DNA of 64,000 bases from Leucoraja ocellata (lineage: Eukaryota). This document shows, piece by piece, positions 3,815 to 63,355 of this stretch. Numbering within the stretch: the first letter of the stretch is position 1; every line of letters begins with the position of its first letter. The DNA is taken from contig JAWMAR010000006.1 of the NCBI GenBank assembly GCA_036785375.1, positions 4,960,001 to 5,024,000 on the forward strand, written 5' to 3'. The position numbers and the translations under genes are program-made. The notes beneath the pieces were generated by a model. It made no database searches. It was not told the origin of the DNA and saw only the letters and a program-made list of their open reading frames with translations.

Positions 3815-3908
3815 GGTAGACCAAAATGCTGGAGAAACACAGCGGGTGAGGCAGCATCTATGGAGCGAAGGAAATAGGCAACGTTTCGGGTCGAAACCCT
3901 TCTTCAGA
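3815..3908 (-). mobile_element. Penelope pLTR-derived short element
   Basis: Matches terminal repeat at 18526-18620 of the GIY-YIG remnant. Confidence 0.85.
3880..3907 (-). ncRNA. Minimal hammerhead ribozyme motif, intact core
   Basis: Minus strand CTGAAGA A GGGT-TTCG-ACCC GAAA CGTT: CUGANGA box, 4-bp stem II with UUCG loop, GAAA box, palindromic ACGU stem III, GUU triplet; stem I weak. Confidence 0.7.
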
Positions 3909-3984
3909 TTTATTTAGGAAATTCTTCAGCGTTATAAATCTGTTGCACTTTATAATTGCACTTAAAATGCCTGTCAACACAGTG

Positions 3985-4345
3985 TACCCGAATAATGAAA
4001 GACCTAGCTAGAGTGGATGTGGAGAAGATGTTTCCAGTAGTGGGAGGCCAGAGGGCAGAACCTCAGAGTAATAGGACCTCACTTTAGAATGGAGATGAGG
4101 AGGAATGTATTTACCCATTGTGGTGAATCTCTGGAACTCATTGCCACAGACGGCTGTGGAGGCCAAGTCATTGAGTCTTTTTAACGTGGAGATTGATAGG
4201 TTCTTGGTTAATAAGGGTGTCAAAGATTATGGGGAGAAGGCCCAATGGGGTTGAGAGGGACAAAATAGATCAGCCATGATTGAATGTCAGACTCCTTGGG
4301 CCAAATGGCCCAATCCTGCTCCTATGTGGTCCTATGAACTTATGT
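3985..4345 (+). mobile_element. CR1 LINE (HER1-like) 3' end
   Basis: ORF2 C-terminus-like DVEKMFP..VVNLWNSLPQTAVEAKSL..FNVEIDRFL..KGVK, followed by 3' UTR. Confidence 0.88.
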
Positions 4346-5009
4346 ATCAGTGACTGCATATTAATGGGGAATGGAGTCTGAATAAAACCAACATACCTGC
4401 TCACCTTTATGTGGTAATAGAGTTATAGAGTCATAGAGCTACACAGCATGGAAACAGGCACTTCGGCCCAACCTATCCGAGCCCACATCCTTCCAAACCT
4501 TTCCCATCCACCTACCTGTCCGTATCTGTTAAATGCAGAAATTCACACCCCTCTGCACTTCCTCATTTATTGCACTTGCACGGTCTGAAAGGTTTGAAAC
4601 CAAGAACCACAGACACCCAAAATTAGTGTTGTGAGGGCTGACTCTCTGGATGCACAATGATCCTACCTATTGATAGAGAAGACAAATATGTCTGTGACCA
4701 TGTTTGTGTATTCAGTAACAAAATAATCGGTCCGGTCTGGAAACTTCCTTAATCTCAATGTTGCAAAATAACTTAACTGAAGACGTTTGATGCCTGATTT
4801 GATGTAGGGGCCAGTCAATGTAATCCCATTGTATTACATTAGGCTGATGTGTCTGATAATACCTCACGGTTATGAAAGTTTGCAACCAATATCTCTTGAG
4901 CAGCCAGCTTCCTGCCGTGGGCCAGAAGCCTGTAATCTGTAGACAGCACTGTTTGTTTACAAAGCTGTCCTTTTTACTTTCAAAACTTCATCACTGCTTG
5001 TGGTTTATA

Positions 5010-5690
5010 TTTGTCGAAAGCAATTTATCAGGATGGTTTGGGAACAGCTCCATCCATGACCGCAAGAAATTGCAGAGAATTGTGGACGCAGCCCAGACTA
5101 TCACACAAAACAACCTCCCTTACATTGACTCCATTTACACATCACGCTGCCTCGGCAAGGCCATCAGCATGATCAAGAATGGGCCGCATCCTGGCCACTC
5201 CCTCTCCTGCCCTCTCCCATTGGGCAACAGGTATAGAAGTGTGAAAATACACACTTCCAGATTCAGGGACAGTTTCTTTCCAGCTGAAGAAGGACCACGA
5301 CCCGAAATTTCGCCAATTCCTTCTCTCCACAGATGCTGCTTCACCCGCTGAGTTTCTCCAGCATTTTTTGTCTACCTTCGATTTTTCCAGCATCTGCAGT
5401 TCTTTCTGAAAACAATTCTTTCCAGCTGTTATCAGGCAACTGAACCATCCTACCAACAACTAGAGAACAGCCCACGATCTACTATCTACCTCGTTGGAAA
5501 CCCTCGGACTATCTTTGATCGGATTTTACTGGACTTTATCTTGCACCATTACATTAATCCCTTTGTCATATGTTTGTACACTGTGGATGGCTCGATTGTA
5601 ATCATGTATTGTCTTTCTGCTGGCAGGTTAGGACATGACAAAAGTGTTTCACTACACCTCGGTAAATGTGGCAACAAACTGAACTCAAAC
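5010..5690 (+). mobile_element. Rex1/Babar LINE 3' portion, interrupted at 5284-5415
   Basis: WFGNSSIHDRKKLQRIVDAAQTI..SRCLGKA..HPGHSL..RYRSVK..RFRDSFFP is a Rex1-type ORF C-terminus; tail TTTCACTACACCTCGGTAAATGTGGCAACAAAC. Confidence 0.82.
5284..5415 (+). mobile_element. Penelope pLTR/hammerhead short insert with 13-bp TSD
   Basis: TTCTTTCCAGCTG at 5274-5286 and 5416-5428; begins with CTGAAGA (CTG shared with the TSD). Confidence 0.88.
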
Positions 5691-5961
5691 ATATTTAGAA
5701 GTCTAGTTATCTTTTGTAGTAATGCCTGCCTTCCACATAATTCTTGTAGGATGGCCCATGTGTAACTATCCCAAACAACCCCCTCATCCAAAGCAATGAC
5801 ACAGTTTGTTATCTGCTGGAACCTTACCACTGGCAATCCTTGTATCACAGCAACCTAATTCAAAAATGGCCTGTTTCATTCCTTGTCCATTTCTTATCTG
5901 TTAACTAATCCTCAAACCACACATGGCATGAAGTGTATATTGCACTGAAGAACACAAGCTT

Positions 5962-6275
5962 TTTAGTTTCGTTTAGATCAGGTTAGAAAAACTGAGGGGA
6001 AACAGGCACTTCGGCTCATTGAGTCCACGCCGACCAGCGATACCCACACATTAACACTGTCCTGCACACTGGGGACAATTCACAATTTTACCAAACCAAT
6101 TAACCTACAAACCTGCATGTCTTTGAAGTCTAGGAGGAAACTGGAGCACCCGGAGAAAACCCACGCAGGTCACGGGGAGAACGTGCAAACTCTGTACAGA
6201 GAGCACCTCTAGTCAGGATAGAACTTGTGTCTATGGCACTGTAAGGCAGCAACTCTGCCGCTGCGCCACCGTGCC
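5962..6275 (-). mobile_element. V-SINE, full length
   Basis: Reverse complement of 1062-1379 consensus. Confidence 0.9.
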
Positions 6276-6309
6276 ATCCAATGGTTAGGTCAAACAAACA
6301 ATGGTTTAT

Positions 6310-6480
6310 TTTTACAACCATTTTTGCGACATCTAATCAAAGACCTTTGAGAAATTGAAATGTACAACATCCATTGACACCCCATTATCTCAAAAAATTC
6401 CTGCAGATTTGCCTAAACATGACTTCCTCTCACTAATCTATGATGACTCTTCCCAAACCTATTATTTCCTATAGTTTCCC
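6310..6480 (-). mobile_element. Old CR1 reverse-transcriptase fragment
   Basis: Minus strand resembles RT motifs (QHGF..GRSCL.NL, DVVY.DFSK.FD), degenerate. Confidence 0.5.
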
Positions 6481-6487
6481 AGTAAAA

Positions 6488-6742
6488 TAAAGGAACTGCA
6501 GATCCTGTGTTACAAAAAAAGACATGAAGTGCGAGAGTAACTCGGCAAATCAGGCATCATTTCTGGAGATAATGAATAGGTGACATTTCGGGTTGGGACA
6601 CTTCTTCAAACTGATTCTGGTGTTGGGGGTGGTGGTGGGGGGTGGGGGGGAAAGAAAGCAGGAAGAGGGGAGGAGCAGAACAAAACCTGGCAGGCGATAG
6701 GTGGATACAGGTGAGGGTGGTGTAGGATAGATCGATGGTTGG
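6488..6742 (-). mobile_element. Penelope 3' UTR plus pLTR, decayed hammerhead
   Basis: AGGAACTGCAGAT..GGTGACATTTCGGGTTGGGACACTTCTTCAAACTGA. Confidence 0.75.
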
Positions 6743-6782
6743 AAGCACGCTCGCTGACAGCATTTAAGAAGTATCTAGATGA

Positions 6783-6840
6783 ATAAAATAAAAAATAAAA
6801 ATAAAAATTAAGATAAATATATAAATAATAAAAATAAACA
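6783..6840 (+). mobile_element. A-rich tail-only insertion inside a CR1 fragment
   Basis: 17-bp direct repeat AAGAAGTATCTAGATGA at 6766-6782 and 6841-6857. Confidence 0.7.
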
Positions 6841-7295
6841 AAGAAGTATCTAGATGAGTATTTGAATCATCTAGTCATAGAAGATTATAGACATGCTGAT
6901 ATGTTGGTGATTAATACAGATGGGTATCCATTGGTTGGCTTGGACATGGTGGGTTGGATACCTAGTCTCCATGCAATATGACTCTCTGACTATGAGTCTA
7001 TCACATTTCAACTTCCTCTTGTCAGGCATCCTATTAATGGAAGACATTCCTCCAGATTATGATTAAACATCCAGAGAATTCTGCCACTCCTCCTCAACCA
7101 AAGCTATGGGTTTTACAAATGGTTGCTCTGAGGCATGGACCTTGATGAAGGGTCTCGGCCCAAAACATCACTTACTGTATTGCTTTTCTCCACAGCTGAT
7201 ACTTTATTTGCTCTTGTGGGTCTGGGTTCCATACAAGAAACAATAACTTTTTAAAAATACACAGTAAATAGGAAATGCAAATACCAGCATTGTCA

Positions 7296-7505
7296 ACAGA
7301 AATCCCATCCCCTCATACAGAAATCCCATCCCCTCATACAGAAATCACATGCCCTCATACAGAAATCACATGCCCTCATACAGAAATCACATGCCCTGAT
7401 ACAGAAATCACATGCCCTCATACAGAAATCACATGCCCTCATACAGAAATCACATGCCCTGATACAGAAATCACATGCCCTCATACAGAAATCCCTGCCC
7501 TATCA
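7296..7505 (+). repeat. 21-bp minisatellite, 10 units (ACAGAAATCACATGCCCTCAT)
   Basis: Unit starts every 21 bp from 7296 to 7485; variants ordered A A B B C B B C B plus a diverged terminal unit. Confidence 0.97.
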
Positions 7506-7571: not shown

Positions 7572-7719
7572 ATAGGAAGGAACTGCAGATGCTGGTTTAC
7601 ACCGAAGATAGATACAAAATGTTGGAGTAACTCAGCAGGTCAGGCAGCATCTCTGGAGAAAAGGAATAGGTGACGTTTCAGGTCAAAACCCTTCTTCAGA
7701 CAGCATTTTATGTCTATCT
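7572..7719 (-). mobile_element. Penelope pLTR element with near-intact hammerhead (7672-7699) and short inverted end
   Basis: Minus strand CTGAAGA A GGGT-TTTG-ACCT GAAA CGTC; 7701-7719 is an inverted copy of about 7606-7624. Confidence 0.85.
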
Positions 7720-11335: not shown

Positions 11336-11810
11336 TCTTGTACCAGGTGTGGACTGTCTTCACAAGGAATTCCATCTCTGCATGAACCAGATTACCAATC
11401 GTGCAGACTGCGTTCGATCCTAACCTGACTATGGATGCTGTCCGTATGGAGTTTGTACGTTCTCCCTGTGACTGGGTGGGTTTTCTGTAGGGTCACCGGT
11501 TGCTGCCTGACCTGCTGATGCTCCAGCAGTTTGTGTCCTTTTGTGTAAACCAGTATCTGCCGTTCCTTGTTTCTACAGTTTGTCCCAACCTGGTCATTTC
11601 TTCTTCTCCCGACTCTAATCAGGCAGAAGATACAGAAGCTCATAAGCATGCACCACCACTCATGAACAACTTCTTCCCCTCTGCTCTCAGGCTTTTGAAC
11701 AGTCCTGCCATAAGCTAAGATACAGCCCAATTAACCTCTGCCCCATTGCGGACATTGGACTTTGTCTCTGGAACGGCTACAATACTGATAACCATATTCT
11801 TCACTTTAGC

Positions 11811-11973
11811 TGAAGTAACTTCACTTTAACTGAAAGGCATCAGTCTGAAGAAGGGTTTTGGCCCGAAACGTTGCCTATTTCCTTCGCTCCATAGATGCTG
11901 CAGCACCCGCTGAGTTTCTCCAGCATTTTTGTGTACCTTCAATTTTCCAGCATCTGCAGTTCCTTCTTAAACA
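11811..11973 (+). mobile_element. Penelope pLTR/hammerhead insert with 15-bp TSD
   Basis: ATTCTTCACTTTAGC at 11796-11810 and 11974-11988. Confidence 0.9.
11845..11872 (+). ncRNA. Minimal hammerhead ribozyme motif, intact core
   Basis: CTGAAGA A GGGT-TTTG-GCCC GAAA CGTT. Confidence 0.68.
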
Positions 11974-13035: not shown

Positions 13036-14054
13036 ATGTTTTTGTTATGTTCGCGGAGGGAGAAATATTGACTGGGAAATTTTGGAAAAAAATCACATGT
13101 TCTTTATCGATGTCCCATCCAATCATAGTCATACAGCATAGAATCAAGCCCTTCAGCACACTGTTAATGCAAAATATCAAGTACCCATTGGTACTAATCC
13201 AATGCATCAGGTCTTGCACTGTAGCCTACTGTGCCTTGGCTGTTCAAATGCTTTTTCAAAGTACATTTAAAATGCTAATGGAGCACTTATACTCACCATT
13301 CTCTTGGACAGTCTGTTCCAGATATCAACCTTACTCTGGATGAAACAAATTATTCTTCTGAACCTCTTACCTTACACCTTTGCCCTCTGGATATAGACAT
13401 CCGCCAAGTTGGGCCTTAGTTTGATGTCACAACTAAAAGAGAATACCTCTGCTCTCTTTCTTCTCAAGACTCTGGAGAGGGGGCTGAAATTGCAACTTCC
13501 GTGTTAGAGTTTGGAACTGTCACCAAGCTGAGATTGACACCCAACCTGTGATGGAAAGTCATCAAAAACTTTTGATACTCGTAGTCTGAAATCAGAACAG
13601 TAAAGGTTGGAAGAACTTAGCAGGTAGGCATTTGGCCTGCAATATTGACTCTATCTCTCTTTGTAAATGTGCTGCCTGACCTGATGAATGTTTCCAGCAA
13701 TTAGGCTTTTTTTATTTCTGAGAAACCCATCCACACCACCCTGATAGGGTACAGTTATGTGAGTTTTAGTTACTAGATTAAAATGTGCACTACAGATGCA
13801 TCAGTTTGAAGAACGTAAATTCTGTAATTGAAAATTTCTGGAATTTAAAGGAAGTTTAATCTTAGTAACAGTGATCACAAAATGGTCAGATTTTTATCAG
13901 ATAGTTTACTGATGTCCTTCAGGGTACAATGTTTGCCATCCTTACTCATTCTGAACTGTACATGACTCCAGGCATTTCAATGTAGTTGATTCTTAGCTGA
14001 CTACAACAAGAACCCAATAGAAACAGGCGTAGGCCACTAGATCCCTCAAGCATA

Positions 14055-17909: not shown

Positions 17910-18525
17910 ACTCAAAAAAACTCAGTATAACATGAAGTTTTATGTTAAATGTGAGAAAGCTCTATGTTTGAGTCTGAAAAAAAGATTATTTCAGTGTGAG
18001 TTCATTAGTCCTAAAACAGGAATTGTGCAGAATGGTGATGTATTACCATTCACGGGTAGACTTCCTGCCAGGATATGGCAACGTGTCAAGTTGCATCTTG
18101 CCATGTTAGGCAGGGTCACACTACATGTGGCAAACCTGGTGTTGTATTGCTAGTTTTGTTAAGATCAGGGAGGTCTGTGCTCGGGAACTGAATGGATTCT
18201 GATTCTTGGCAGATAGAATCGACATGCTAATCCACCCTAGTCACAGCAGAATTTGTTAGAAAAAGGGCTCTGTCCTTCTCATTACTTGCTGAACCATAAT
18301 GTAGGAAGGGGCATTTGAATGTCTGATCCTTGCACTGAGAAATATGATTTCAAATACTAATAGAGATAACTTGATTTTATATAAAGCCTTCAATGTGTAT
18401 TCAGATCTTTAGAAAACAGAGCAATTAGACTGATTGTTTTGTGGAAGAGAATTGCGGAATATATTACCAGAGAATGTCACAGAAACTAACAGTTCAAGGA
18501 ATGTTAACTGATATGAACAATACAA

Positions 18526-19200
18526 GGTAGACATAAATGCCGGAAGAATTCAGCAGGTGAGGCCGCATCTATGGAGAGAAGGAATAGGCGACATTTCGGG
18601 GAGAGACCCTTCTCCAGACTGATGTTGGTGGGGGGGGGGGGGGGGGGGGGCGGGAAAAATAAAGGAAGAGGCGGAGACAGAGGGCTTGTGGGAGAGCTGG
18701 GAAGGAGAAGGGGAAGGAGGGAGAAATCAATGACTATCTGAAATTAGAGACGTCAACGTTGATACTGCTGGGGTGTAAATTACCTAAGTGAAATATGAGG
18801 TGCTGTTCCTCCTATTTGCGCTGGGCCTCACTCTGGCAATGCAGGAAGCCCAGGACGGAAAGGTCAGATTCGGAATGGGAGGGGGAGTTGATGTGCTAAG
18901 CCACTAGGACATCAGGTTGGTTAGTGCGAACTGAGCAGAGGTGTTGGACGAAGCGATCGCTGAGCCTGCGCTTGATCTCACCGATATAGAGAAGTTGATA
19001 CATGGAATAGCGGATGCAGTAAATGAGGTTGGAGGAGGTGCAGGTGAATCTCTGCCTCCCCTGGGAAGACTGTTTGGGTCCTTGGATGCAGTCGAGGGAT
19101 GAGGTAAAGCAACAAGTGTAGCATTTCCTGCGGTTGCAAGGGAAAGTACCCAGGGAGGGGGTGGTTTGGGGGGGGAGGGACGAATTGACCAGGGAAATAC
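18526..19200 (-). mobile_element. 5'-truncated Penelope-like element (Neptune type): endonuclease, 3' UTR and pLTR
   Basis: GIY-YIG coding remnant followed downstream by the hammerhead-bearing repeat (18526-18620). Confidence 0.9.
18734..19195 (-). pseudogene. Penelope GIY-YIG endonuclease C-terminus with two in-frame stops
   Basis: PCNRRKCYTC Cys linker; FTCTSSNLIYCI..LLYIGEIKRRLSDRFVQHL..VA*HINSPSH..RK*EEQHLIFHLGNLHPSSINVDVSNFR*. Confidence 0.88.
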
Positions 19201-19639: not shown

Positions 19640-20290
19640 CTATAACTAGAACTTCAAGTTCCTGGGTGTACGTATCTCTGAAGACCTGTCCTGGGCCCAG
19701 CTTACTGATGCAAACTTAAAGAAAGCTCATCATTGCCTCTACATCCTGAGAAGATTAAGGAGATTTGGTATGTCGATGAATACCTTCTTGAGGTCCACCT
19801 TACATATGTATGGTGAACTGCATATCGACTGGTTTGGCAACTTGAACACCCAGGACATTACAAACAGTGGTGGACACCACCCGGTCACCATCATGGGTTT
19901 TGACTTCCCCACCACAGAAGGGATCTATAGGAAGTGTTGCCTCAAAAGGACAGCCTGCATCACCAAAGACCCACACCACCCCGGCCACCATCTCATTTCA
20001 CTCCTACCATTGAGAAGAAGGTATAGGAGTGGAAAAACTGTGACCGCCAGGTTCAAGAATAGTTTTTTCCAAACATCCATTAAACTCATGAACACTACAC
20101 CACACTGATCGATGAACAATGGACTGTCTTGGGTCACACAATACTTTGGGCATTTTTTTTTGCACTAGTATTGAGGTTATTAATGTAATGATTTTTTTTG
20201 TGTTTATTACATATGATCTAGGCCTATTGTGTTATAGGCCTGTTGTGCGGCTGCAAGTATTCCCTTGTGGGTGCATACTGACAATTAAAC
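19640..20290 (+). mobile_element. Rex1/Babar 3' portion
   Basis: FKFLGV..SEDLSW..LYILRRLRRFGM..WFGN..KDPHHPGH..RRYRS..RFKNSFF. Confidence 0.82.
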
Positions 20291-20309: not shown

Positions 20310-20651
20310 ATGAAGGAAGAAACTGCAGTTGCTGGTTTAAACCGAAGATAGACATAAAAAGCTAGAGTAACTCTGCAGGTCAGACAGCATATCTGGAGAA
20401 AAGGAATAGGTGCCATTGTGGGTCGAGAGGGTCAGATGGAAGGTCTCAACCCATTTTTTGTGTCTATCTGTGGAGGGCCAAGGAAGAAATGGAAGGCTTT
20501 AAGGCCTTCGTGGTGGGGGATGGAGGTGTAGAGTGACTGAAAGTCCATAGTCTGAAGAAGGGTCTCGACCCAAAACGTCACCTATTCCTTTTCTCCAGAG
20601 ATGGTGTCTGGCCCATTGTGTTACTCCGGAGCTTTTAATGTCTATCTTCAG
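20310..20651. mobile_element. Two opposed Penelope pLTR elements (20310-20469 minus, 20549-20651 plus)
   Basis: CTGAAGAAGGGTCTCGACCCAAAACGTC at 20552 (GAAA mutated to AAAA at a CpG). Confidence 0.82.
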
Positions 20652-21499: not shown

Positions 21500-21645
21500 C
21501 ACAAGAAACTACAGGTGTTTGAATTTTGAGCAAAACCCAAAGTGCTGGAGGAACTCAGTGGGTCAGACAGAAATGGAGACTAAAGAAGGGTCCTGACCTG
21601 TAACATCATCTATCCATTTCCCTGCACAAATGCTGCCTGACCACC
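21500..21645. mobile_element. Old fold-back pLTR element
   Basis: Minus arm 21500-21570 then plus arm CTAAAGAAGGGTCCTGACC..ATGCTGCCTGACC. Confidence 0.65.
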
Positions 21646-22989: not shown

Positions 22990-23337
22990 TTCCCCCTTCT
23001 AGCCATATCCCTCCTTCCAGTTTTAGATTTCACTCCTCCTCTTCTTTCATTACCTGACACCCTTTTGCCTCCTTGTCACCTCTAACGTTTGTCATTTACT
23101 CTACTCATCTGCCAATAACCTCACCCTTTATCTCTAGCTACCTCTCTCTTGTCGGGCTTTGCCCCATCTCCACCTCTTTTTCCAGCTTTCTCCCCCCTAC
23201 TCCAATTAGTCTGAAGAAGAGTAACAACCCGGACAGTTGCCTGTTCATTCCCTCTACAGATGCTGCCTTACCTGCTGAGTTATTCCAGCATTTTGACTTT
23301 AGCTCAAGATCCCAACATTTGCAATTCCTTGTATCTC
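22990..23337 (+). mobile_element. Penelope 3' UTR plus pLTR, decayed hammerhead at 23211
   Basis: TTTTAGA ORF end, pyrimidine-rich UTR, AGTCTGAAGAAG. Confidence 0.72.
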
Positions 23338-24164: not shown

Positions 24165-24430
24165 AGGGCAGGTCTGCTTCAGGAACAGCTTCTTCCCGAG
24201 AGCCATCAGGCTATTAAACACTACAACCTCAAATAAGCTCTGAACTACATAGACCATTATTGTTATTATTGCACTATTATTGTTTATTTGTCTTTTTATG
24301 TTATATTTCATATGATATATGTATATGTGAGTATGGCAGCATCTCTGGAGATGAAGGGTTTCGCCACGAAACTCCACCTGTTCCTTTTCTTCAGAGATGC
24401 TGCCTGACCCGTTGAGTTACTCCAACATTT
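24165..24430 (+). mobile_element. Rex1 tail (24165-24330) followed by fold-back pLTR element (24335-24430)
   Basis: FRNSFFPRAIRLLN; GGCAGCATCTCTG..CAGAGATGCTGCC inverted arms. Confidence 0.72.
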
Positions 24431-24569
24431 GGGGTGGGGTGGGAGGGGGAATGATGAAGGTTTAATAATCTGGAAGAGGTCTAGATAGGATAAAATAAAT
24501 TAGAACAGAAGAGAGAGGAAAGACTGCTGGAACTGTCAGATACAGAACTTGGTGATTTCTAGAAACCTG

Positions 24570-25570
24570 AAGTAAATGAGAATGCTGGAAGTACGCAGCA
24601 TGTCAGGCAGCTGCTGTGGAGAGAGAAACTAATAAGACAACAATCTGAATCTGATACAAATTAGAGATGCTGGTTATCTAAAATAGTTGAGTTCAATGTT
24701 GAGACTGAGGATCAGTGATTTGTCTCTTTGGAAGATGACTGAGTGTTCTTCAGGCCTTTGCTGCGGTGTGTGGTAAACATCAAATCCTGGGAGTTGGATG
24801 AAGAATTAAAGTGTCAAGCAAATGGAGGTTCAGGTTCCCTCTTGCTGACCTAGCTCAAGTGTTCTGCAAAACAGTACTGGATGTATCTGGATTCAGAACT
24901 GGATGAATCATGGAATGGTTTGGGAACAGCTCTACCCAGGACCGCAAGACCATCACACAAGCCAAACTCCTTTCCATCGACTCCATTTACACCTCACACT
25001 GACTCAGCAAGGCCGCCAGCATAATCAAGGACGAGTCGCACCCCGGACACTCTCTCTTCTCCACTGTTGCATTGGGCAAAAGGAATAGGAGTGTGAAAAC
25101 GCACACCTCCAGATTCAGGGACAGTTTCTTCCCACCTGTTATCAGGCACCTTAACCATCCTACCATCAACTAGTGAGCGGTCCTGAGCTACTATCTACCT
25201 CATGGGAGACCCTCGGACTATCTTTGATTGAACTCGTTCCTTTATCTTGCACTATACGCCATTCACATTCTTCCCTTTATCATGTACACTGTGAATGGCT
25301 CAATTGTAGACATCTATTGTCTTTCTGCTGACTTTTTAGCATGCAACAAAAGCTTTTCACTGTACCTCGGTACATGTGACAACAAACTAAACTAAACAGT
25401 CACCAAACACAGAGGAGACCAATCATGATCACCAGCTTCAATACATTGAATTGTAAACCCAATGGAATTGCTGCTTCATCTGGGAAGGAGCATTTGGTTC
25501 CTGGATGGTGGGAAGGAAAGAAAAAAAAAGGATAGTTATTACATCCCCGTGGCTGCAAAGGAAGATAATG
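24570..25570 (-). mobile_element. Old Penelope GIY-YIG remnant split by a Rex1 insertion
   Basis: 24570-24875 and 25398-25570 resemble 18526-19150; AAACAGT at both junctions (24869, 25394). Confidence 0.55.
24915..25397 (+). mobile_element. Rex1/Babar 3' end
   Basis: Close homologue of 5010-5690 without the pLTR insert. Confidence 0.85.
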
Positions 25571-25586: not shown

Positions 25587-25775
25587 TGTGTAGGAAAGAA
25601 CTGCAGAATCTGGTTTACACTGAAGATAGACACAAAATGTTGGAGTAACTCAATGGCACAGGCAGCATCTCTGGAAAGAAGGAATGGGTGACGTTCGGGT
25701 CAAGATCCTTCTTCAGACTGAGAGTCAGGGTAGAGGGAGATACAGAGATAAGGAAGTGTAAGGTGTGAAAAAGAG
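25587..25775 (-). mobile_element. Penelope pLTR element
   Basis: Minus strand CAGTCTGAAGAAGGATCTTGACCCGAACGTCACC. Confidence 0.82.
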
Positions 25776-27049: not shown

Positions 27050-27195
27050 GAAAGACACAAAATGCTGGAATCTGAGGGCCCCGGCCCGAAACGTCACCAA
27101 TCCATGTTCTCCACAGATGATGCCTGACTCGTTGAGCTACTCCAGCATTGTGTGTCTTTCTTTGGTAAACCAGCATCTGCGGTTCTTTGTCTCTA
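27050..27195 (+). mobile_element. pLTR element with short inverted 5' end
   Basis: GGCCCGAAACGTCACC; degenerate 14-bp TSD at 27036-27049 and 27196-27209. Confidence 0.75.
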
Positions 27196-29320: not shown

Positions 29321-29323
29321 GAT

Positions 29324-30499: not shown

Positions 30500-30740
30500 G
30501 GAAAAAAACTGAAATTGCTGGAGGAACAGTGAACCAGGCAGCATTTGCTGAGGTGGAAGATAGTCAACATTTGGATCGAAATCCTTTGTCACTCAGAGGG
30601 GAGAACGGAAGTAGAAAGAAAGGACGGAGAGTAGTGAGACAGGACCTAGCAAGTGGATCCGGATGAGGAGAGGTTGATAGGCAAATGGAGTTAAATGGAG
30701 GAGGGACGTGTGGAGATAGCGACAGAATAAAGATAAAAAA
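30500..30740 (-). mobile_element. Old Penelope pLTR and 3' UTR
   Basis: TGCTGGAGGAACAG..CAGGCAGCAT..AGTCAACATTTGGATCGAAATCC. Confidence 0.6.
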
Positions 30741-33575: not shown

Positions 33576-33892
33576 TGACTCATGGCTCTAAGTATGAATA
33601 TTGTGACCAAGCTTACCAACAACCCCAGACTGAATCTTAGTGCTTACAAGATCAGCGTGTGCTATTTAAAGAAGCAACGTGAGTCTTCCCAAGTAGTGAT
33701 TTGTGGTGTATTTTCATCCCTCAACCAGCACCATCAGTGATAGATATTCCAATCATTGCTTTATGTACTCTATGGCGCCCAAGCCGAGCGATTCTCTGCG
33801 TGCTGGTCCCAGAAGAAGATATGCAATCACCCATTATAATCGCTCCACTCTTTTAAACCTTTAAACCTTTAGTCCAGCAGCAAATTCTCTTT

Positions 33893-34084
33893 GTTTAGGA
33901 AGGAACTGCAGATACTGGAAAATCGAAGGTAGACAAAATTGCTGGAGAAACTCAGCGGGTGCAGCAGCATCTATGGAGCAAAGGAAATAGGCAACATTTC
34001 GGGCCGAAACCCTTCTTTAGGCCTATTTCCCTAGCTCCATATATGCTGCTGCACCCGCTGAGTTTCTCCAGCATTTTTGTCTAC
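33893..34084. mobile_element. Fold-back Penelope pLTR insertion with 15-bp TSD
   Basis: Arms 33928-33992 and 34021-34085 (61/65 complementary); TSD CAGCAAATTCTCTTT at 33878-33892 and 34085-34099. Confidence 0.92.
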
Positions 34085-34849
34085 CAGCAAATTCTCTTTA
34101 TCCTGTATCCGTACATTGTGGTTGGCTTATTTGTAATCACGTATATTCTTTCCGCTGACTGGATAACATGCAACAGAGAAGCTTTTCACTGTACCTCGGT
34201 ACACGTGACAATAATAAACTAAACTAAGCTTTGTTATTTTTGCTGTGTGGAACTAGTTGCATAGTCTGAAAAGCACCGGTGGCTATTTACAAAGCAACAC
34301 ATTAGTCCTTCAGAGGTATTAACAAAATGATTATTTACTAAGCTCTGCAGTTGAAGAATACCCAAGAGAATATACAATGTACATTAACAAATATGTTAAC
34401 TATCAGTTATTGCAAATATTTAAATTTATTCAGGAATTAGATATTTTAAGTATCTCTACCATTCACATACTGAAGATGGTGAATAATATTAAAAGGTGTA
34501 AAACAGTGCTGGAGGAGTGAGCAAGTGATGAGATAATTTACAGAACTAATAATATGGGATTTTTATAACACTGCCTACATTGTTGATGTTGTTTTTTTAT
34601 CTCAGGGATAAAGTAGGTGGGGAGGGCATTATCTTTCCTGTTGGGACGGTTCGGAACAAGGGGCATGTTGTATTTATAACAAACTTAGAACAAACCCTTT
34701 CAGCATAATTCATTGAAACACTTCTTCATACCAAGGGTAATAGAAATCTGGAACTCTATCCTCATCTCCTATCAACCCACCACTGAAAGTTCCCACGGTC
34801 AGTCAATTTAAAATTCCAGAATGGAGATTTCTGGTGTAAAGCAAAATGG

Positions 34850-36101: not shown

Positions 36102-36199
36102 GTCAGTCTGAAGAAGGGTTTCGGCCCAAAACGTCGCCTATTTCCTTTGCTCCATAGATGCTGCTGCACCCACTGAGTTTCTCCAGCATTTGTGTGTAC
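36102..36199 (+). mobile_element. pLTR/hammerhead insert with 10-bp TSD
   Basis: CTTTCACAAA at 36092-36101 and 36200-36209; CTGAAGAAGGGTTTCGGCCCAAAACGTC. Confidence 0.88.
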
Positions 36200-36859
36200 C
36201 TTTCACAAAATCATGTTCACTCTGCTTAATCATCTTATGATTTTTTTTTAAATGTCTTACTAATTTTCTCCCCAATTATAAAGATTGGTTTAACCTGCCT
36301 ATAATTTTCTACCTTCTTCCTTTCTTGAATAATGGTCTTAGATCTACAACTCTCTAAACCTCTGGGACCTCTGCAGAATTAAAGAAATATTGGTATATTA
36401 TAACCAATCTATCCACTTTCTGCAGCCACTCCCAAGAAGGCCCGATGATGCATGCTAAATGATCCAGGACCATTCTCATTCTTTAGTCCCAATAGTCCCT
36501 TGTACCTTTTGACTATGCAAATACTTTGTTTTAAGTTTATTATAGCCACCAATGATGGTGGGACTAGCATAGATGGACAAATTGGTCCAAAGGGCCCGTT
36601 TCCATGCTGTATGACTCCATTATTATTGGTAGCACCTTAATTATCTATTTTAATCAGTATATTTTCATTTACTTTCACCATGGATATGAATCTACAACAA
36701 TTATTTGGAACCTCTGCCGTTTCTTAATTTCCCATTCTTAATTTACCCATCCCATTCTTCAAGGGATCAACAGTTACTTGAACTATTCTCTTCCGTTTAT
36801 ACACTTGCAGAAACTCTTACTATAATGTTTTTATATTGTTTACTTATTTACTCTTAAGT

Positions 36860-45749: not shown

Positions 45750-45882
45750 GGCTGGAGAGATCTGCAGATGCAGATGTAGAGACCCTTGACCCTGTTTCGG
45801 GTCGAGGATCTCTGCATCTGCATCTTCTATCCAGAGATGCTGCCTGTCCTGCAGAGTTACACCAGCATTTTGTGTCTATCTT
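45750..45882 (+). mobile_element. Rearranged pLTR element containing a 27-bp hairpin
   Basis: Arms 45766-45792 and 45799-45825; pLTR tail follows. Confidence 0.75.
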
Positions 45883-46741
45883 TGGACTGGGACAGTGTCG
45901 CATAGAAAAGCTCATGTGGAGTCTGTCTGTGCTCTCCACGATGGTTCAGAGTGAAGGTCATGGAGAGAGTGCAGGGGGACTGGGAGGTGGGTGAAGTCAC
46001 ACGTACAGAGATATGTAAGGAGATTGTGAAATAGAAACTGACCATTTAGTCAAAGTGATAGCTTTTAGGAAAAATAAGTAAAGAGGTGGAAAGATTAATA
46101 GATGGGATTTTGGAGCCAGGGATCTTGGCAGCTGAAGATACAGCTACCAGTAATGGTGCAATTAGTACGGGAGTAACACAAGGGAACAGAACTGAGGGAG
46201 ATGGAGATCATAACTAGAATACATTTATGAGGAGCTTAGAATACATTTTTCCTCAATCTGTTGCCTACAGCTTGTATCCTCAGCTTGTCCTTCTTTTACT
46301 GTTGGAGGTTATGTTAACTTTTATCAACCGTCTTGTAAATGCAGAGCATTTTAAAAGTGTGGGTGACATCATCAGAAATTGGCTACGAGACTGACTCCAA
46401 GTGCGATATTCAGTTGAGCTGGCAAGCGCAGAGTTGAAAGAGTGTGACTGCTGAAACATCCTTGGTTCACGGTTATATCACTTCATTTCCCTTGCGCTGC
46501 TTACATCAGTAATTCTTCCAGCCCTGTTTCCTCAGCTTTTCACCAGCATGTACAATGATGGAGCACAAAGCTGCCAAGTGGGTTTTTTTCCCATTTGAGA
46601 AATAGCCTTCTAAGTTCCACCTGGTTTCACTTATGTTACATTTAACAGACTTTATTTTCCCCACGGAATCTTCTTTACAAATTATGACATTTATTGTTAA
46701 TCCATGAAAAAAACTGATATTATTTTACAATGTAACTCAGG

Positions 46742-47050
46742 GCAGCACAGTTGTCCAGCGGTAGAGTTGCTGCCTTCGAGCACCAGGGACCCGGGTCAGA
46801 TCCGGATGCTGTCTGTATGGAGTTTGTGCATGTTCCCTGTGACCACGTGGGTTTTCTCCGGGTGCTCCGCTTTCCTCCGGGTGCTCCGCTTTCCTCCCAC
46901 TCCCTAAAGACGTACAGGTTTGAAGGTTTATTGGCTTTGGTAAAACTTGTATATTGTCCCTAGTGTGTGGGATAGTGTTAGTGTATGGAGTAATTGCTGT
47001 TCGGTGTGGACTCGTTGGGCCCATTGCCACGCTATATATCTAAAGTCTAA
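46742..47050 (+). mobile_element. V-SINE with 19-bp internal duplication
   Basis: (GGTGCTCCGCTTTCCTCC)2 at about 46861-46897. Confidence 0.9.
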
Positions 47051-48012
47051 ATCAGTTCGTTGGCCAGAGAGATAATGGGGTAAGGTCAGAGTTGATAGCA
47101 GAAGCTGTGTTGCATGGATGGTGCGCTGGGACTGGATGAAACGTCCTGCTTCTCTTGGGACAGGAGTGGTGCTTGCCTCCAAACCTATTTGCCACGTTAT
47201 TTCTTTACTCCTCCTTCTACTTGTGTAGGAAATCCCAACAATGTGGGTTAAAAGTAGAAATGGCATTATAGTGGGACACGCTGCTTCCTTTCAAGGTTTG
47301 AATCACTACTCCAGACTGCACAAACAGTTTAAATACTCTTTAACTACTGCCTTTATTAAAACTGGACGAAGGTGGGTTTGAGATGCGTTTGGGTTGTTAT
47401 GAAAATGTTGATGCATTTTTTCACATCTATTTTTTGTAATTTGTAAGAATGAATATACTTGTTATTTATTGGCCACGTCAGCAGAAGTCCTGGTACTTTA
47501 ACGTGTTTATCTTCTGTTCCTCCTTTGACGGCCACCATTTTGATTGTTCTCTGTAAGGGTGGTGTTCATAGATTTGTAAACTCCAGCAAGGCGTGAAGTA
47601 AACATAATCTAGTGAAGTAAAAGTCTCAACCCTACGTTAATTTGATATGTTAAGATACGGCAACACCCAATACAAACTCCCCCCACTTTGGAGGTTAAAT
47701 TTATTGTGAGTTTCTCTCTCTGTAAACATTTATCGTCATGTTGTCTTAATCTAAGTGTTGGACAGTGTGGAATTCCTTCTCTGCAAAAGGGATCTGCATA
47801 GTATGATTAACCCTGTAAGTATTTTTATTCTGCAAGGTAAATAGTCAAAGCAAAGAAGTTGCAGGTTAATGTAATAGTTTTAATAAATATGGGTGGAACT
47901 GAGATTTAGGGCATTGCTGTCAGATACGTGCACATATGAAGCCCATTGTGTTTTCCTTGTTATTGCAGCTCTTCTTTAATAAAGGTACAGCATTAGCCAT
48001 CTTCCAGTATGG

Positions 48013-48325
48013 AGAAACAAGGAACTGTAGATGCTGGTTAACACACAAAAGAACACACATTGCTGGTGTAACTTTGCAGGCTAGGCAGCATCTCAGGTCA
48101 ACATGGATAGGTGACTTTTATGGTCGAGATCCTTCAGGCTGATTGTAGGGATAGGGGGGAAGAAAGCTAGAAGAGGGGAGAGGCAGGACAAAGCATGGTG
48201 AGTAATAGGTAGACGCAGGCAAGTATTTTTTCTTTGATAGGCAGATGGTTGGAACGCAGGTCTGAGATAAAAACAGAAGGTGAGCTACACGGTTGAAGAG
48301 TTTCAAATTGTGAAGCTGGAGGAAG
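48013..48325 (-). mobile_element. Penelope pLTR plus 3' UTR
   Basis: Homologous to 6488-6742. Confidence 0.72.
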
Positions 48326-49320: not shown

Positions 49321-49494
49321 GCCGTTAAGGTGTATATGACTGCAACTAATAGTGTACAAAAACGAATTTTATAAATATTTGAACGGAAAATAATTTTCAA
49401 AGTCTTGGGTTGACAGGTTCTTTCACCTGCTTGTGCACTTTTCAAGGGCGCTTGGAATGTCACTGAGTTGTGTGTGCACAAACACAGGGATAAC

Positions 49495-49938
49495 ATATCT
49501 GAGGAAGAATGTGCTGGCTCTGGAGAGGGCCAAGAGGAGATTTACAAGATTGATTCGAGGAATGAACGGGTTAGTATATGAAGAGCGTTTGACAGCACTG
49601 GGTCTCCACTCGCTGTTTAGAAGGTTTAGATGGTTGCGGGGTAACCTCATTGAAACTTACAGAATAATGAAAGGCATAGATAGAGTGGATGTGGAAAGAA
49701 TGTTTCCACTGTGGGAGAGTCTAGGACCAGAGGTCATAGCCTCAGAATTGAAGGGTGCTCTTTTAGAAAGGAGGTGAGGAGGAACTTCTTTAATTAGCGG
49801 GTAGTTAATCTGTGGGACTCATTATCACAGAGGGTTGTGGAGGCCAAGTCAGTGGATATTTTAAGGTAGAGAGAGACAAATTCTTGATTAGAACTGGTGT
49901 CAAGGGTTATGGGGAGAAGGGAGGAAAATGGGATTAGG
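49495..49938 (+). mobile_element. CR1 ORF2 C-terminal fragment
   Basis: YLRKNVLALERAKRRFTRLIRGM..YEERL..LRGNLIETYRIMKGIDRVDVERMFPL. Confidence 0.9.
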
Positions 49939-51299: not shown

Positions 51300-51665
51300 A
51301 TCACTTCTCTCTCCATTCCTCCCACACCCTAGTCATCATACTAGTTACTCTGTCGTCCTGTTGAGTTTCACTTTCTGTATAACTTGTTGTCACCTAGACC
51401 ACAGCCAACAATGGACCATTGTGAGTTCCACCGTTTCTTGATCATCATTGTTTTTTGCATTCCTTTCATTCATTTGTTCTATATCCCCCTATATCACCGT
51501 CTATATGTCTTGTTTCCCTTTCCCTTGACTCTCAGTCTGAAGAAGGGTCTCGACCCAAATGTCACCAATTCCTTTTCTCCAGAAATGCTGTCTGACCAGC
51601 AGAGTTACTCCAGCTTTCTGTGTCTATCTTTGGTTTAAACCAACATTTGCAGTTCCTTCCTACAC
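51300..51665 (+). mobile_element. Penelope 3' UTR plus pLTR (hammerhead at 51537, GAAA mutated)
   Basis: CTCAGTCTGAAGAAGGGTCTCGACCCAAATGTCACC. Confidence 0.8.
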
Positions 51666-53659: not shown

Positions 53660-54520
53660 TAACGTCATATGTGATAGGACTAGAATTAGGCCATTCAGCC
53701 CATCATGCCTACTCCGCCATTCAACCATGGCTGATCTATCTCACCAACTAACCACATTCTCCTGCCTTCTTCTCATGACCTCCGACACCTGCACTAATCA
53801 AAAATCTATCTACCGCTTCAAAAACAGTTTCATTCCCACTGCAATTAACATTTTAAACTCTGTACGGTGAGGAATAAGAATAAGCATGGCCTTTATGTAT
53901 TATGTAATGTGTCTGTCTGTATGTATATCTATGTTATATGTTTAATGTTGGAACCTGTACCGAGCTGTACTGATAACAAATTCCACCAGCCTGGCTGTGT
54001 GGTCATTAAAATACAATACAATACAATACAATCTATCTCGGCCTTAAAAATATCCACTAACTTCGCCTCTACAGCCATCTGTGGCAAAGAATTCCACAGA
54101 TTCGCCGCCTTCTGACTAAAGGCATTTCTCCTCATCTACTTCCGAAAAGAATAACCTTTAATTCTAAGGCTACGACCTCTAGTCCTAGACTCTCCCACGA
54201 GTGGAAACATCCTCTCCACATCCACTCTATCGAAGCCTTTCACTATTCTGTGTGTTTCAATGCGGTCCCCCCTCATTCTTCTAAACTCCAACGAGTACAG
54301 GACCAGTGTCGACAACCCTCATCATATGTTAACCTACTCATTCCTGGGATCATTCTTGTAAACCTCCTCTGGACCCTCTCCAGAGCCAGTACATCTTTCC
54401 TCAGATATTGTGCACACAATCGCTCACAATACTCCAATTGCGACCTTACCAGCGCCTTATAGAACCTCGACATTACATTCCTGTTTTTGTATACAAGCCC
54501 TCTTGATTAAATGCTAGCAT
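53660..54520 (-). mobile_element. CR1 3' portion interrupted at 53812-54029
   Basis: YKALVRSQLEYC..YLRKDVLALERVQRRFTRMIPGM. Confidence 0.9.
53812..54029 (+). mobile_element. Rex1-type tail with (TACAA)n end and 9-bp TSD
   Basis: RFKNSFIPTAINILN; AATCTATCT at 53803-53811 and 54030-54038. Confidence 0.8.
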
Positions 54521-59894: not shown

Positions 59895-60540
59895 GTCATA
59901 GTCATAGAGTCATACAGCACGGAAACATGCCCTTCGGCCCAGCTTGTCCATGCCAACCAAGCTGCCCCATTTACACCAGATGGACACAAAATGCTGGGGT
60001 AATTCAGTGGGACAGGCGGTATCTCTGGAGAGAAGGAATGGGTGATGTTTCGGATCGAGACCCTTCTTCATCTACACTAGTCTAATCTGCATTTGGCCCC
60101 TATCCCAATAAATCTTTCCTATCCATGTACCCACCCAATGTCTTTTAAATGTTCTTATAGTATCTGCCTCAACTACCTCCACTGGCAGCTCATCCCATGT
60201 ACTCACCACCCTCTCTGTGAAAAAGTTATTCCACAGATTCATATTAAATCTTTCCCTTCCCACCTTAAACCTATGTCCTCTAGTTTTTGATGCCAATCAC
60301 CTACTCTGGGCAAAAGACTCTGTGCATCTACTCTATCTATTCCTCTCATGATCATTTTCAACTCTCTAAGATCGCACCTCAGATTCCTGCACTCCAAGGA
60401 ATAAAGTCCTAGTCTGCCTAACCTCTCCATATAACTCGGGCCAACTTCAGAAATCTACCATGCACTCTTTCCAGCTTAGCTGCTAAAGCAGGCTGTCAAA
60501 ATTCAACACAATACTGTAAATGTTGCTTCACCCATATCAT
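59895..60540 (-). mobile_element. CR1 3' portion interrupted by a pLTR insert
   Basis: ERLGRLGLYSLE..IMRGIDRVDAQSL..TRGHRFKV..NNFFTERVV. Confidence 0.88.
59980..60068 (-). mobile_element. pLTR/hammerhead insert with 12-bp TSD
   Basis: CATTTACACCAG (59968-59979) / CATCTACACTAG (60069-60080). Confidence 0.82.
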
Positions 60541-61019
60541 TTCCTACAACTTTAGGCTGTGCACGCCATACGCAAGAAGAAGACCCATGTAGTTCACCAA
60601 TGGTCACTAACCTTCCACCGTTCACAACTCTTCTATTGGCATTATATAGGTTTAAGTTTATTGTTGTAGTAGGTACAGTGCAAAGCTTTTCTTTGCATAC
60701 TCTGCAGATCAGATCAGATCAGATTTATTACAATGAATAAAATCGTCAAACTCATGTAGAGCAAAAGGGAAGATACAGAGTGCAGAATATAGTGCTCAGC
60801 ATTTTTGACTAACCTCATGGGCTGCTGTTGAGCACAAAATTAGCATGATTTTACCACTTTTGATTGACAAGGTCAATAGACCGATCATGTTGCAGATGCA
60901 AGGACAGGCAGGAATTTGACAACTTTCAGCTTGTACTTTTTGTCAACCTTAATTTCAGAGGGTGCAGATAAATAATCAATAGCAATCATTCATGGAGATC
61001 CATCTAGACAGTCATCAAG

Positions 61020-61300
61020 CAGCATCCACTAATCCCACCCTGACCTCATTTTATTCCCCCCACATTCCAATTAATTTCCTTCATATTCTTTCACCTCCGG
61101 CATGAGGGTCAATTTTACCTTGGCCAATTCATCAGCCTATCTGTATATCTTTGGGATGTGGGAGGAAACCAGAGGATGTGCTGGAAGACCACATGGTCAT
61201 AAACAAAATGTATACTCCACATGGACAGCACCAGATGTTGTGATTGAACCAAGACTACTGGAGTAACACAGCAACAGTTCCAGCAGCTGTGCATTGTGCC
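61020..61300 (-). mobile_element. Old V-SINE
   Basis: CTTTGGGATGTGGGAGGAAACCAGAG..GACAGCACC. Confidence 0.7.
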
Positions 61301-61745
61301 ACCCCATTCATTCAGGTTCCTGCCTCCACAACCACTATGCTGCCCATTACCATGGCTACCATTACCACTACATCCACGGAATTTAGTTTGAAAGAAAGCC
61401 CTGAAAATAATCTCTCATCTCAACACCCAAAGTGCTATGTTATGTGGAGAATGCATTCTTTGTTAGCGGCACTTAAACCCTTAACCTCCATTAACAAGAA
61501 GGGCAGTGCAAGAGATGAATACGAACACTGCCTCTTCTGAGTCACCCGCCTTCCTGGCACGGAAATTTATCGATGTGATACTCTGTGAAGCTCTTCATCT
61601 TCCTAGACAATCTCATGACTTGCAGCTCTCCAATTCACCTGTGCATGAGCTATTCCATGATCTGGACAGAGCAAGGTTAAGGTGCAGTGACAAGGGGATT
61701 TAAGACCATTGGGGAAACAAGTTCAGGTGCTCAGTCTGAGCACAA

Positions 61746-61969
61746 NNNNNNNNNNNNNNNNNNNNNNNNNNNNNNNNNNNNNNNNNNNNNNNNNNNNNNN
61801 NNNNNNNNNNNNNNNNNNNNNNNNNNNNNNNNNNNNNNNNNNNNNNNNNNNNNNNNNNNNNNNNNNNNNNNNNNNNNNNNNNNNNNNNNNNNNNNNNNNN
61901 NNNNNNNNNNNNNNNNNNNNNNNNNNNNNNNNNNNNNNNNNNNNNNNNNNNNNNNNNNNNNNNNNNNNN
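61746..61969. other. Assembly gap
   Basis: Run of N. Confidence 1.
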
Positions 61970-63189
61970 CAGGTTCACACCTATTTTCTATAGGTAAACT
62001 ATGAATGGGAAATACATACCAATCCTTATAGTTAAACTCATGTTCTGAAATCAATATTTTTGAAGCTTTTACAAGTAATTGTTTTCTGCAGAAGTCTCTG
62101 AAATCCTGAACAAAGAATCTGATTAAAATATTGACACATTCCTTGACACACTCTGATTCAAGGTAATTGATTCGGGATGGGCAGATTAAGAGAATTAAGA
62201 TTGTTTGCTGGGAACAATGCTAAGATTACAGAATACAAAGTAAAAGAAAAGAACAAGTAGGGAATTCCTGAAGATTGGGACAAGGCATCTGAAGATATTC
62301 CACCAAGAGAGATAAGATCTGGAGCCAAGCACACGGAGGCCTGGATCATAAGGGAGTAGAGGAGAGGTTTCAGAAATAAGCTAGGCCAAATCCATAGAGA
62401 ATTTCTTAAACCTAAGCAATGCTTTGATGCTGGGTAGACTAACCATTTCTCAATCTCATTCTTAATATGGTTTTTATTCTATGAAATGCGCCAACTGGCA
62501 AGAGTGTTAATGGTAATGTCAATCAAATAGTGTTCCTCTTTCAACAAAATTAGACAGATTTATTGCAATAAACATGTAGGTTATTAATGTTTGCCTTATT
62601 TGGCTGAGGATGAAGGAAGCAGGTGTGTTTTCCTCTGGAATGCATTATTTGAGGAAGAGAGGGATTTTGTATTTTGGTGGCACAACAATCTGCTAGTGTT
62701 ATCCACTCAAATAAAGAGAAATAAAAGCGAGCTTTAGTTTGGAAAAGGGACAATTCTAAGTCATGCAAAATGAACCAAATAAGATCAGTTGCAGTAGTCA
62801 TTTGCAAATTCCCTCATTACAGACTACAAGCATTCTTGATGTTCTTCCTTCTTTTGCATTTCAGGCCCTTTCATTTTCTAAAGAAGTCAACCCTGATGCA
62901 TGGATTCAATTGCAACTTTTCTTCGGCCAATCTCAAGGCGGCAACAAAACTTCGCTAGACCATTGCAGTTTTAACCTACTGTGTGCCACAGGTGAACAGT
63001 GCACCCACAGATGCTCCGTCTCTAGTGATATCCAGGAGTTAAACTCATATTTTAAAAGCTGGACAGCACAAGAAAAATGTGCTTCTCCTACTGGGAAGAA
63101 AATCGGTTTGTAGTCAGAAATGGACCAAGGGGTAAATTGTTTTGTTTCCTTTCCTTATGGACAAGAGGATCTGAATGCTCCACTATAAT

Positions 63190-63355
63190 TATATACCTCA
63201 AGTTTCCCTTCCCCCTGCCTCTCAGTCTGAAGAAGAGTCTTGACCCAAACATCACCTATTCCTTTTCTCCAGAGTTGGTGTCTATTGCACCGTTGCTCAA
63301 GCATTTTGTGTCTATTTTCGATGTAAACCAGCATTTGCAATTCCTTCCTATACAT
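63190..63355 (+). mobile_element. Penelope pLTR element, decayed hammerhead at 63227
   Basis: CTCAGTCTGAAGAAGAGTCTTGACCCAAACATCACC. Confidence 0.8.

Follow-up and report, generated by a model that had tools for sequence, protein, structure and literature searches.

Short hammerhead-bearing repeats in the Leucoraja ocellata genome as probable end pieces of Neptune-type Penelope elements

The window, a 64-kb stretch of Leucoraja ocellata DNA, contained 27 related segments of 55-130 nt, detected with a profile HMM whose seed comprised 16 copies from the window. The same model returned 250 segments from 464 kb and none from the same DNA reversed, which upheld the count of more than 20 related segments in a first-pass annotation of the window. 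The complete set of conserved hammerhead core bases was present in 4 of the 27 copies and three of these also had a pairable stem II, as the annotation had proposed for the same three intact or near-intact cores. The first, a stub of the young subfamily at 3794-3912(-) with its 5' end at about -1 (end coordinates are counted from C3 of CUGA), has an intact core at 3880-3907(-) but no longer carries the upstream G on which the second stem I pair depends. The second, a long-tail stub of the young subfamily at 11839-11967(+), has its core at 11845-11872(+) and a 12-bp target-site duplication, while the third, a long-tail stub of the second subfamily at 7575-7703(-), has its core at 7672-7699(-) and one G-U pair in stem II. 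In the fourth complete copy, a long-tail stub within a LINE-like remnant (5283-5406(+), 14-bp target-site duplication), the core at 5284-5311(+) was intact and stem II was broken.

Several segments are associated with further Penelope sequence. The segment at 18519-18623(-), mutated at core position 6, is the pLTR that terminates a 5'-truncated Penelope copy at its 3' side, and 117 nt upstream lies a remnant of the ORF C-terminus (18740-19195(-)) that includes the linker Zn finger and GIY-YIG and is 68% identical to the intact protein described below (E 6.5e-57). Upstream sequence from the 3' UTR accompanies a stub at 25593-25754(-) (about 33 nt, common to another copy) and the long-tail stubs at 51365-51660(+) (about 167 nt, common to another copy) and 63188-63348(+) (about 34 nt). 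The sequence upstream of an old stub at 23206-23331(+) is 3' UTR-like, and that upstream of an older stub with a mutated core at 6490-6615(-) is pyrimidine-rich and resembles the 3' UTR of the element. Other segments are inverted with respect to one another. A long-tail stub at 20315-20428(-) is head-to-head with a short-tail stub at 20548-20651(+), whose core is CpG-decayed; an old inverted fragment pair occupies 21503-21642 (21503-21578 minus, 21577-21642 plus); and at 33891-34093 an inverted insertion, flanked by a target-site duplication, consists of a long-tail minus arm starting near C3 and a short-tail plus arm whose first base is +28, where cleavage is predicted.

The remaining segments are a short-tail stub at 36103-36205(+) with a 14-bp target-site duplication and a CpG-decayed GAAA, a short-tail stub at 59972-60071(-), an older long-tail stub with a deletion within the core at 48018-48143(-), an incomplete old stub in which core position 7 is T (7143-7211(+)), a stub that lacks the 5' half of the core (27075-27188(+)), a decayed stub (24350-24435(+)), a partial stub (45818-45895(+)), two very old stubs (13623-13712(+), a weak match, and 30502-30596(-)), a tail-only fragment (11500-11569(+)) and a tail fragment (24560-24625(-)). 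The decay of copies at CpGs, noted at first reading, was also seen in the profile.

The family is as abundant as the annotation had supposed in calling it very high-copy. In 524 kb of unselected DNA there were 285 segments, which extrapolates to about 1.9 million copies, or about 5% of the genome, a figure that refers to segments and not to 3'-end counts. The 3.44-Gb genome contained 30,625 exact occurrences of the motif given in the annotation (control 0) and 90,619 of the core when the 6-nt loop was left free.

The motif fits the published minimal hammerhead consensus position by position, with the core CUGANGA, an extra base, G10.1-C11.1, GAAA, the palindromic 15.2-16.2 and UH all present, which bears out its identification as a homologue of the PLE type. 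A minimal-hammerhead descriptor, a scan suggested in the annotation, gave 39 matches in 464 kb versus 2 in the reversed DNA; an Rfam scan gave no match to a hammerhead family at E<=5. For the proximal stem I, described in the annotation as about 2 bp, there were 2 perfect pairs in the young subfamilies and 4-5 in the oldest cluster, with a bulged third pair possible. Of 452 copies, 263 closed stem II with U-A and 121 with U-G; the change is one-sided and not compensatory. When 11 clusters were compared, variation affected 1 of 11 core positions, versus 4 of 4 in loop II and 11 of 19 and 22 of 46 in downstream columns. This excess of core over flank conservation between subfamilies came from a biased test, in that the copies were collected with the motif-seeded HMM, the approximately 100 small loci were chosen by hammerhead-region patterns, the old clusters were 20-30% decayed, and A9 varies in one of them.

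The resemblance could be coincidental or the relic of a dead ribozyme, with the conserved bases acting as promoter or protein-binding DNA or RNA. Such an explanation would accommodate the short stem I, the lack of an Rfam match, the folding predictions, in which the probability of stem II was <=0.03 in 8 of 8 segments and the hammerhead was not the predicted stable fold, and the finding that ribozyme mutants of the anole element had no effect on insertion in vitro (PMC11167929). It is nevertheless unlikely, given the agreement with the consensus and the pattern of substitution: the free core base at position 7 was non-A 4,208 times versus 2,196 for A6, position 17 was C or U in 416 of 436 copies, and the second stem I pair in old clusters was G-U 10, U-A 9 and G-C 3 times, versus 14 listed non-pairs. 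We infer that the motif is a genuine hammerhead homologue, maintained in master elements, and that cleavage would depend on dimerisation or on assistance from a protein. In the stubs the hammerhead is likely a decaying passenger, copied along uncut.

Intact copies of the parent Penelope element sit elsewhere in the genome, outside the window. An intact 1,234-aa ORF (RT and GIY-YIG) was located at L209:435-4139(-), with Pfam matches in order to RVT_1 (E 1.4e-6) and GIY-YIG (E 0.013), both under the Pfam cut-offs. The protein could be read to contain a CX4CxxC finger in the RT-EN linker and two cysteines within GIY-YIG; a linker CX2-5CxxC finger is characteristic of Neptune and Nematis, and cysteines within GIY-YIG of PLE endonucleases (PMC8557442). 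In a tandem array with a 3,985-bp period, the segment flanks the intact ORF as a pLTR holding the hammerhead, so that successive hammerheads are 3,985 bp apart, 116 nt past the stop codon and 164 nt ahead of the next ATG. Moreover, an ORF remnant was found <=400 bp upstream of the central copy in 23 of 30 exact-motif loci, including both main subfamilies. A GIY-YIG Pfam search of the genome was also tried as a route to the parent, and its match belonged to another PLE family. The parent appears to be a Neptune-type EN+ Penelope-like element, the clade being assigned from the linker finger, which is shared with Nematis, and the cysteines. The annotation had proposed a separate non-coding, retrozyme-like family inserted by a Penelope RT/EN. 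The inserting machinery was borne out; the separate family was not, since the segments are terminal repeats belonging to autonomous elements that code for protein.

The ends of the insertions were examined in young copies, among them a set of 106 independent ones selected by their tail region. The statistics are those of the young subfamily only because the second was under-sampled (13 copies), and a 5'-extent analysis of all ages was set aside because old copies had no matching upstream reference. The 3' ends form two clusters, at about +93 (+89..96) and about +130 (+129..133), and many copies have target-site duplications of 9-20 bp. The 106 copies comprised 23 with 3' UTR, 27 inverted arms and 56 solo copies, with about a fifth of copies extending into the 3' UTR or ORF. 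Among the solo copies, 23 of 56 had a duplication of >=9 bp, and the 5' start lay between -6 and +11 in 48. This pile-up at the hammerhead edge departs from the expectation for smooth truncation, but the ends are ragged, covering about 18 positions with a mode at -2 (8/56) and a second mode at +8. The inverted pairs were more regular. All 24 pairs bounded by a duplication joined one long-tail arm to one short-tail arm, and the 37 candidate pairs comprised 30 long+short, 7 short+short and no long+long.

Several of these observations bear on whether the short copies could constitute a separate non-autonomous family of about 130 nt, either SINE-like or a non-LTR retrozyme, whose transcripts would be cut by the hammerhead, with the Penelope enzyme mobilising the family in trans. 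Of the 106 young copies, 56 are solo, with starts close to one another, and PLE-derived retrozymes have been reported in vertebrates, including one chondrichthyan (bioRxiv 10.64898/2026.07.22.740005). In addition, one variant class (7 solo copies, 2 inverted arms) has no long copy and may represent a short-only lineage. However, retrozyme unit ends would be set by the cleavage site, at which only 2 of the 56 solo copies start, and a SINE with its own master is difficult to reconcile with the ragged 5' ends and with the 5 of the 6 largest diagnostic variant classes that solo copies have in common with copies reaching the 3' UTR. Furthermore, among 285 unselected copies in 524 kb there were 18 same-strand neighbours and no tandem array of whole hammerhead-bearing units; the sole minisatellite lacks the CUGA half, and rare arrays may lie in other parts of the genome. 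A separate family is thus regarded as highly improbable.

Starts at +28 were also counted. About 1,605 were obtained after correction, versus 557 at +26, 410 at +30 and 1,043 at +32, a weak local excess suggesting that some templates may be cut by the hammerhead. As a record of cleavage the 5' ends were retained only as weak, the signal being about 1.5-4 times its neighbours and about 2% of 83,702 exact young tails. The start modes -2, +8 and +10 likewise fall on G, and many of 30 inspected loci starting at +28 were fold-backs or internal deletions.

The repeats are best explained as the pLTR and tail of successive Neptune-type Penelope subfamilies, probably left behind as very short target-primed reverse transcription products of RNA that the hammerhead is unlikely to have cut (probability about 0.85). 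The protein of the element would bind the tail and make staggered nicks in the target, and reverse transcription would begin at either of two internal sites, about +93 or +130, usually halting at the 5' edge of the hammerhead once 90-135 nt had been copied. Priming of both nicks, one per internal site, would occur in about a quarter of arms and give the inverted long-tail/short-tail pairs. Protein-driven priming at internal sites has been demonstrated in vitro for the anole element (PMC11167929).

What halts synthesis at the hammerhead edge bears on a further proposal, which would alter the origin of the stubs and not their identity: they may be copies of an mRNA 5' leader, transcribed from an initiator-like motif at about -3, primed at +93 or +130 and completed by run-off at the RNA 5' end. 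The solo start mode lies at -2, the sequence from -5 to +1 matches the vertebrate initiator pattern, and loose read ends fall at the same boundary, -2/-3, in RNA from another species. The pLTR of Drosophila Penelope also holds an internal Inr/DPE promoter (PMC2377424). Yet the starts range from -6 to +11 with the second mode at +8, no consistent extra cap G was found at the junctions, and stalling at a hairpin or at the C-rich 3' UTR accounts for the pile-up equally well, so the proposal is entertained tentatively. In the raw RNA reads of that other species, 83-96% continue into unlike sequence and the depth over the ORF is tiny; no pile-up of starts or ends was called in these fragmented libraries, which are unsuited to testing cleavage. 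The more specific scheme in which the stubs record two internal priming sites, one per strand of the staggered cut (twin priming), run-off at the 5' end of an mRNA starting at the hammerhead's 5' edge, and ribozyme cleavage of a small proportion of templates in vivo is, taken as a whole, rather doubtful.

The repeats have counterparts in known systems. They resemble the minimal type I hammerheads of metazoan PLE pLTRs, notably that of Acropora digitifera Neptune (Cervera and de la Pena 2014, PMC4209133, Fig. S3), in having CUGANGA, one extra base, a 4-bp stem II opened by G-C, a 4-nt loop, GAAA, a palindromic CG and UH, in the pLTR location, and in occurring mostly as single dispersed motifs from truncated elements. 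The perfect stem I is 2 bp in the young subfamilies versus >=3 bp in most of those motifs, although 2 bp is also found in Drosophila, Culex and Oikopleura, and the exact cores compare with about 4,000 in coelacanth and about 9,000 in Xenopus (PMC4209133). With the EN+ Neptune/Nematis-type PLEs (PMC8557442) they have in common a single RT and GIY-YIG ORF, the linker Zn finger, tandem arrays with pLTRs, inverted 5'-truncated copies and a 30-40-bp tail at one end only; unlike in those PLEs, most insertions here have little or no ORF, and the extrapolated segments, which are not 3'-end counts, compare with up to about 37,000 for the most abundant Naiad. The two 3' end clusters agree with the tail of green anole Poseidon PAc, which is bounded by two internal reverse-transcription start sites (PMC11167929). 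PAc uses an uncut RNA template and its hammerhead is unable to fold alone, a likeness drawn here from sequence and predicted fold, but the PAc sites are inside the ORF, whereas both sites here precede the first ATG (+164), and the clade differs. Metazoan non-LTR retrozymes (PMC7229834; bioRxiv 10.64898/2026.07.22.740005) are also short, non-coding, hammerhead-bearing and PLE-related. They are, however, tandem 150-450-bp units, typically with canonical hammerheads and expressed as circles, in contrast to the stubs here, which are dispersed or inverted, carry a minimal hammerhead and have the ends of a PLE tail. No description of this family from cartilaginous fish was found in the literature searched; such sequences may be listed in supplement file 1 of PMC4209133 or in the supplements of the preprint.

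Earlier publications thus already describe the tail, the truncated or inverted copies, and minimal hammerheads located in PLE pLTRs, and since the short repeats are end pieces of ordinary Penelope elements with a known ribozyme type, it is the very large copy number that stands out. What the Leucoraja ocellata genome adds is scale, about 5% of its DNA, together with clean statistics on insertion ends. The events that follow first-strand priming become testable through the strict long/short pairing of inverted arms and the pile-up of 5' ends, and the intact young ORF suits the assay already established for the anole element. For annotation, the segments belong under Penelope ends and should be entered neither as SINEs nor as active ribozyme genes.

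The short segments carrying the minimal hammerhead motif were genuine and very abundant. Self-comparison and a profile HMM seeded with 16 window copies gave 27 segments in the window, in agreement with the first-pass annotation, which had claimed more than 20 in 64 kb, and 250 in 464 kb; the same profile found none in reversed DNA. A second-round HMM recovered 285 segments, 5.2% of the bases, from 524 kb of DNA unselected for the element. Extrapolation to 3.44 Gb gave about 1.9 million segments, a rough figure since the sample consisted of 46 ten-kb pieces of large contigs and the window, and the very high copy number first proposed was upheld. The types of repeat present make a cartilaginous fish the probable host. 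Genome-wide, there were 30,625 exact matches to the motif as originally described and 90,619 to the hammerhead core with a free loop, with 0 in the control for each. All core bases were retained in 4 of the 27 window copies, and the three with a pairable stem II were those previously described as intact or near-intact, at 3880-3907(-), 11845-11872(+) and 7672-7699(-).

The layout of the motif fits the published consensus for minimal hammerheads of Penelope-like elements (PLEs), and closely resembles the Acropora Neptune hammerhead (PMC4209133). In a test set in advance on 452 copies grouped into 11 clusters, the core was more conserved between subfamilies than its flanks: 1 of its 11 columns was variable, and downstream 11 of 19 and 22 of 46 were, in a partly pattern-picked sample with motif-seeded discovery and noisy old clusters. 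In these clusters, all four loop II columns and 4 of 8 in stem II were variable. At position 17, C or U stood in all but 20 of 436 copies (416). Stem I opened with U-A (178) or U-G (120); its second pair was G-C in young copies and, in old clusters, G-U (10), U-A (9) or G-C (3), with 14 listed cells non-pairing. Genome-wide, a base other than A was 1.9 times as common at the free position 7 as at A6.

The predicted folds of both monomer segments and dimers count against ribozyme activity. Owing to competition from a purine/pyrimidine hairpin, the modeled probability of stem II was at most 0.03 in eight folded segments. Neither of two computationally cofolded dimers adopted the hammerhead. Low in vitro activity and assistance by protein are on record for such motifs.

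The hammerhead-bearing segment is the pseudo-LTR of an element encoding a reverse transcriptase (RT) and a GIY-YIG endonuclease. On contig C1, a 1,234-aa ORF with both domains, each with a Pfam score below the curated cut-off, was flanked by exact segment matches 3,985 bp apart. Its two domains are separated by a linker with a CX4CxxC finger, and GIY-YIG contains two cysteines, features that PMC8557442 assigns to Neptune/Nematis and to PLE endonucleases. Counted from C3, the C of CUGA (position 0), the stop codon of the ORF ends 116 nt upstream and the following ATG is at +164, a placement that identifies the segment as a pseudo-LTR. Of 30 exact-motif loci, chosen for an intact 5' edge, 23 have an ORF remnant no more than 400 bp upstream of their central copy, both main subfamilies being represented. 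The window also contains a Penelope ORF remnant, at 19195-18740(-), with 117 nt between it and the downstream copy at 18623-18519. The proposed link to a Penelope RT/endonuclease was substantiated.

In 30 loci picked by tail motif, the 3' ends were mostly at +89 to +96 (short tail) or +129 to +133 (long tail). These two clusters match the optional PLE tail, which work on the green anole Poseidon element ties to two internal priming sites (PMC11167929). A larger tail set of 131 rows, less 12 with flanks common to another row and 13 with indel-artefact breakpoints, left 106 copies, of which 23 continued upstream into 3' UTR, 27 were inverted arms and 56 were solo. The 5' ends of the solo copies were ragged, 48 of 56 starting from -6 to +11 and two at +28, with starts past about +36 invisible with the tail anchor used. 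By raw count, target-site duplications of 9-20 bp flanked 23 of the 56. When the six largest variant classes were compared, five contained long as well as solo copies; one class of nine copies had no long copy.

Cleavage is predicted to fall between +27 and +28. Matches in young copies began at +26, +28, +30 and +32 in 247, 450, 81 and 462 cases genome-wide, or about 557, 1,605, 410 and 1,043 when corrected for flank probability. This leaves a weak excess at +28, with fold-backs and deletions as confounders. Most reverse-transcription templates therefore carried the complete motif, as do those of the anole system.

Neighbors among the 285 unselected copies were oriented head-to-head in 47 cases, tail-to-tail in 11 and on the same strand in 18, with no arrays of whole units among the latter. 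Given this absence and the scarcity of solo starts at +28, the retrozyme label was not sustained. The pairing of long with short tails, first noticed in the 30 tail-motif loci, was checked on 37 candidate inverted pairs. It held in 30 of them; the other seven were short+short, and no long+long pair was seen. Every one of the 24 pairs in which a duplication was detected, among them that at 33891-34093 in the window, was long+short. Separately, several insertions on C1 of the assembly (about 0.33-0.92 Mb and 2.17-2.76 Mb) were present twice, with the same flanks and in mirrored order (loci L102/L175, L105/L174, L107/L172, L108/L171, L116/L165 and L118/L162), so that either a large stretch was duplicated in inverted orientation or the assembly is at fault. 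A 66-nt minisatellite in another locus (L095:391-667 and 1367-1717) was made of pseudo-LTR from about +20 to +86, without the CUGA half of the hammerhead.

Another PLE family, very young, was arranged in tandem arrays of about 6-6.4 kb, and its spacers abound in vertebrate telomere repeats (L210:155-8873 and L211, on contigs C2032 and C3188; also L048-L057). Of its two long frames, one encodes 624 aa with a weak GDSL-lipase match (E 0.0034, below cut-off) and the other 759 aa with RT and GIY-YIG. An endonuclease-bearing PLE that has an esterase-like first ORF and sits among telomere repeats may merit separate study; no publication clearly on such an element was found among literature listings. 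Its hammerhead-like motif (L210:4628(+); L211:7322 and 1372(-)) has stems I and II of 4 bp each and lacks the usual cleavage triplet, because just two bases separate GAAA from stem I. Other repeats in the window were an abundant, roughly 300-bp family with a tRNA-like head (1057-1380, 46727-47053 and about 20 more), presumably resembling V-SINEs, putative LINE RT C-terminus remnants (reading frames at 4860-5351, 19650-20108, 49394-49777 and 54061-54462), and a 21-bp tandem repeat at 7296-7501 (9.9 copies, 95% matches).

As a mechanism for the pseudo-LTR insertions, target-primed reverse transcription would start from internal sites on uncut RNA and stop early, at the 5' edge of the hammerhead. 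The early stop would reflect either an RNA 5' end set by an internal initiator, such as that of Drosophila Penelope (PMC2377424), or a stall, and the inverted long+short pairs may arise by twin priming. The record of insertion ends is the sole part of this feature that a specialist would want.
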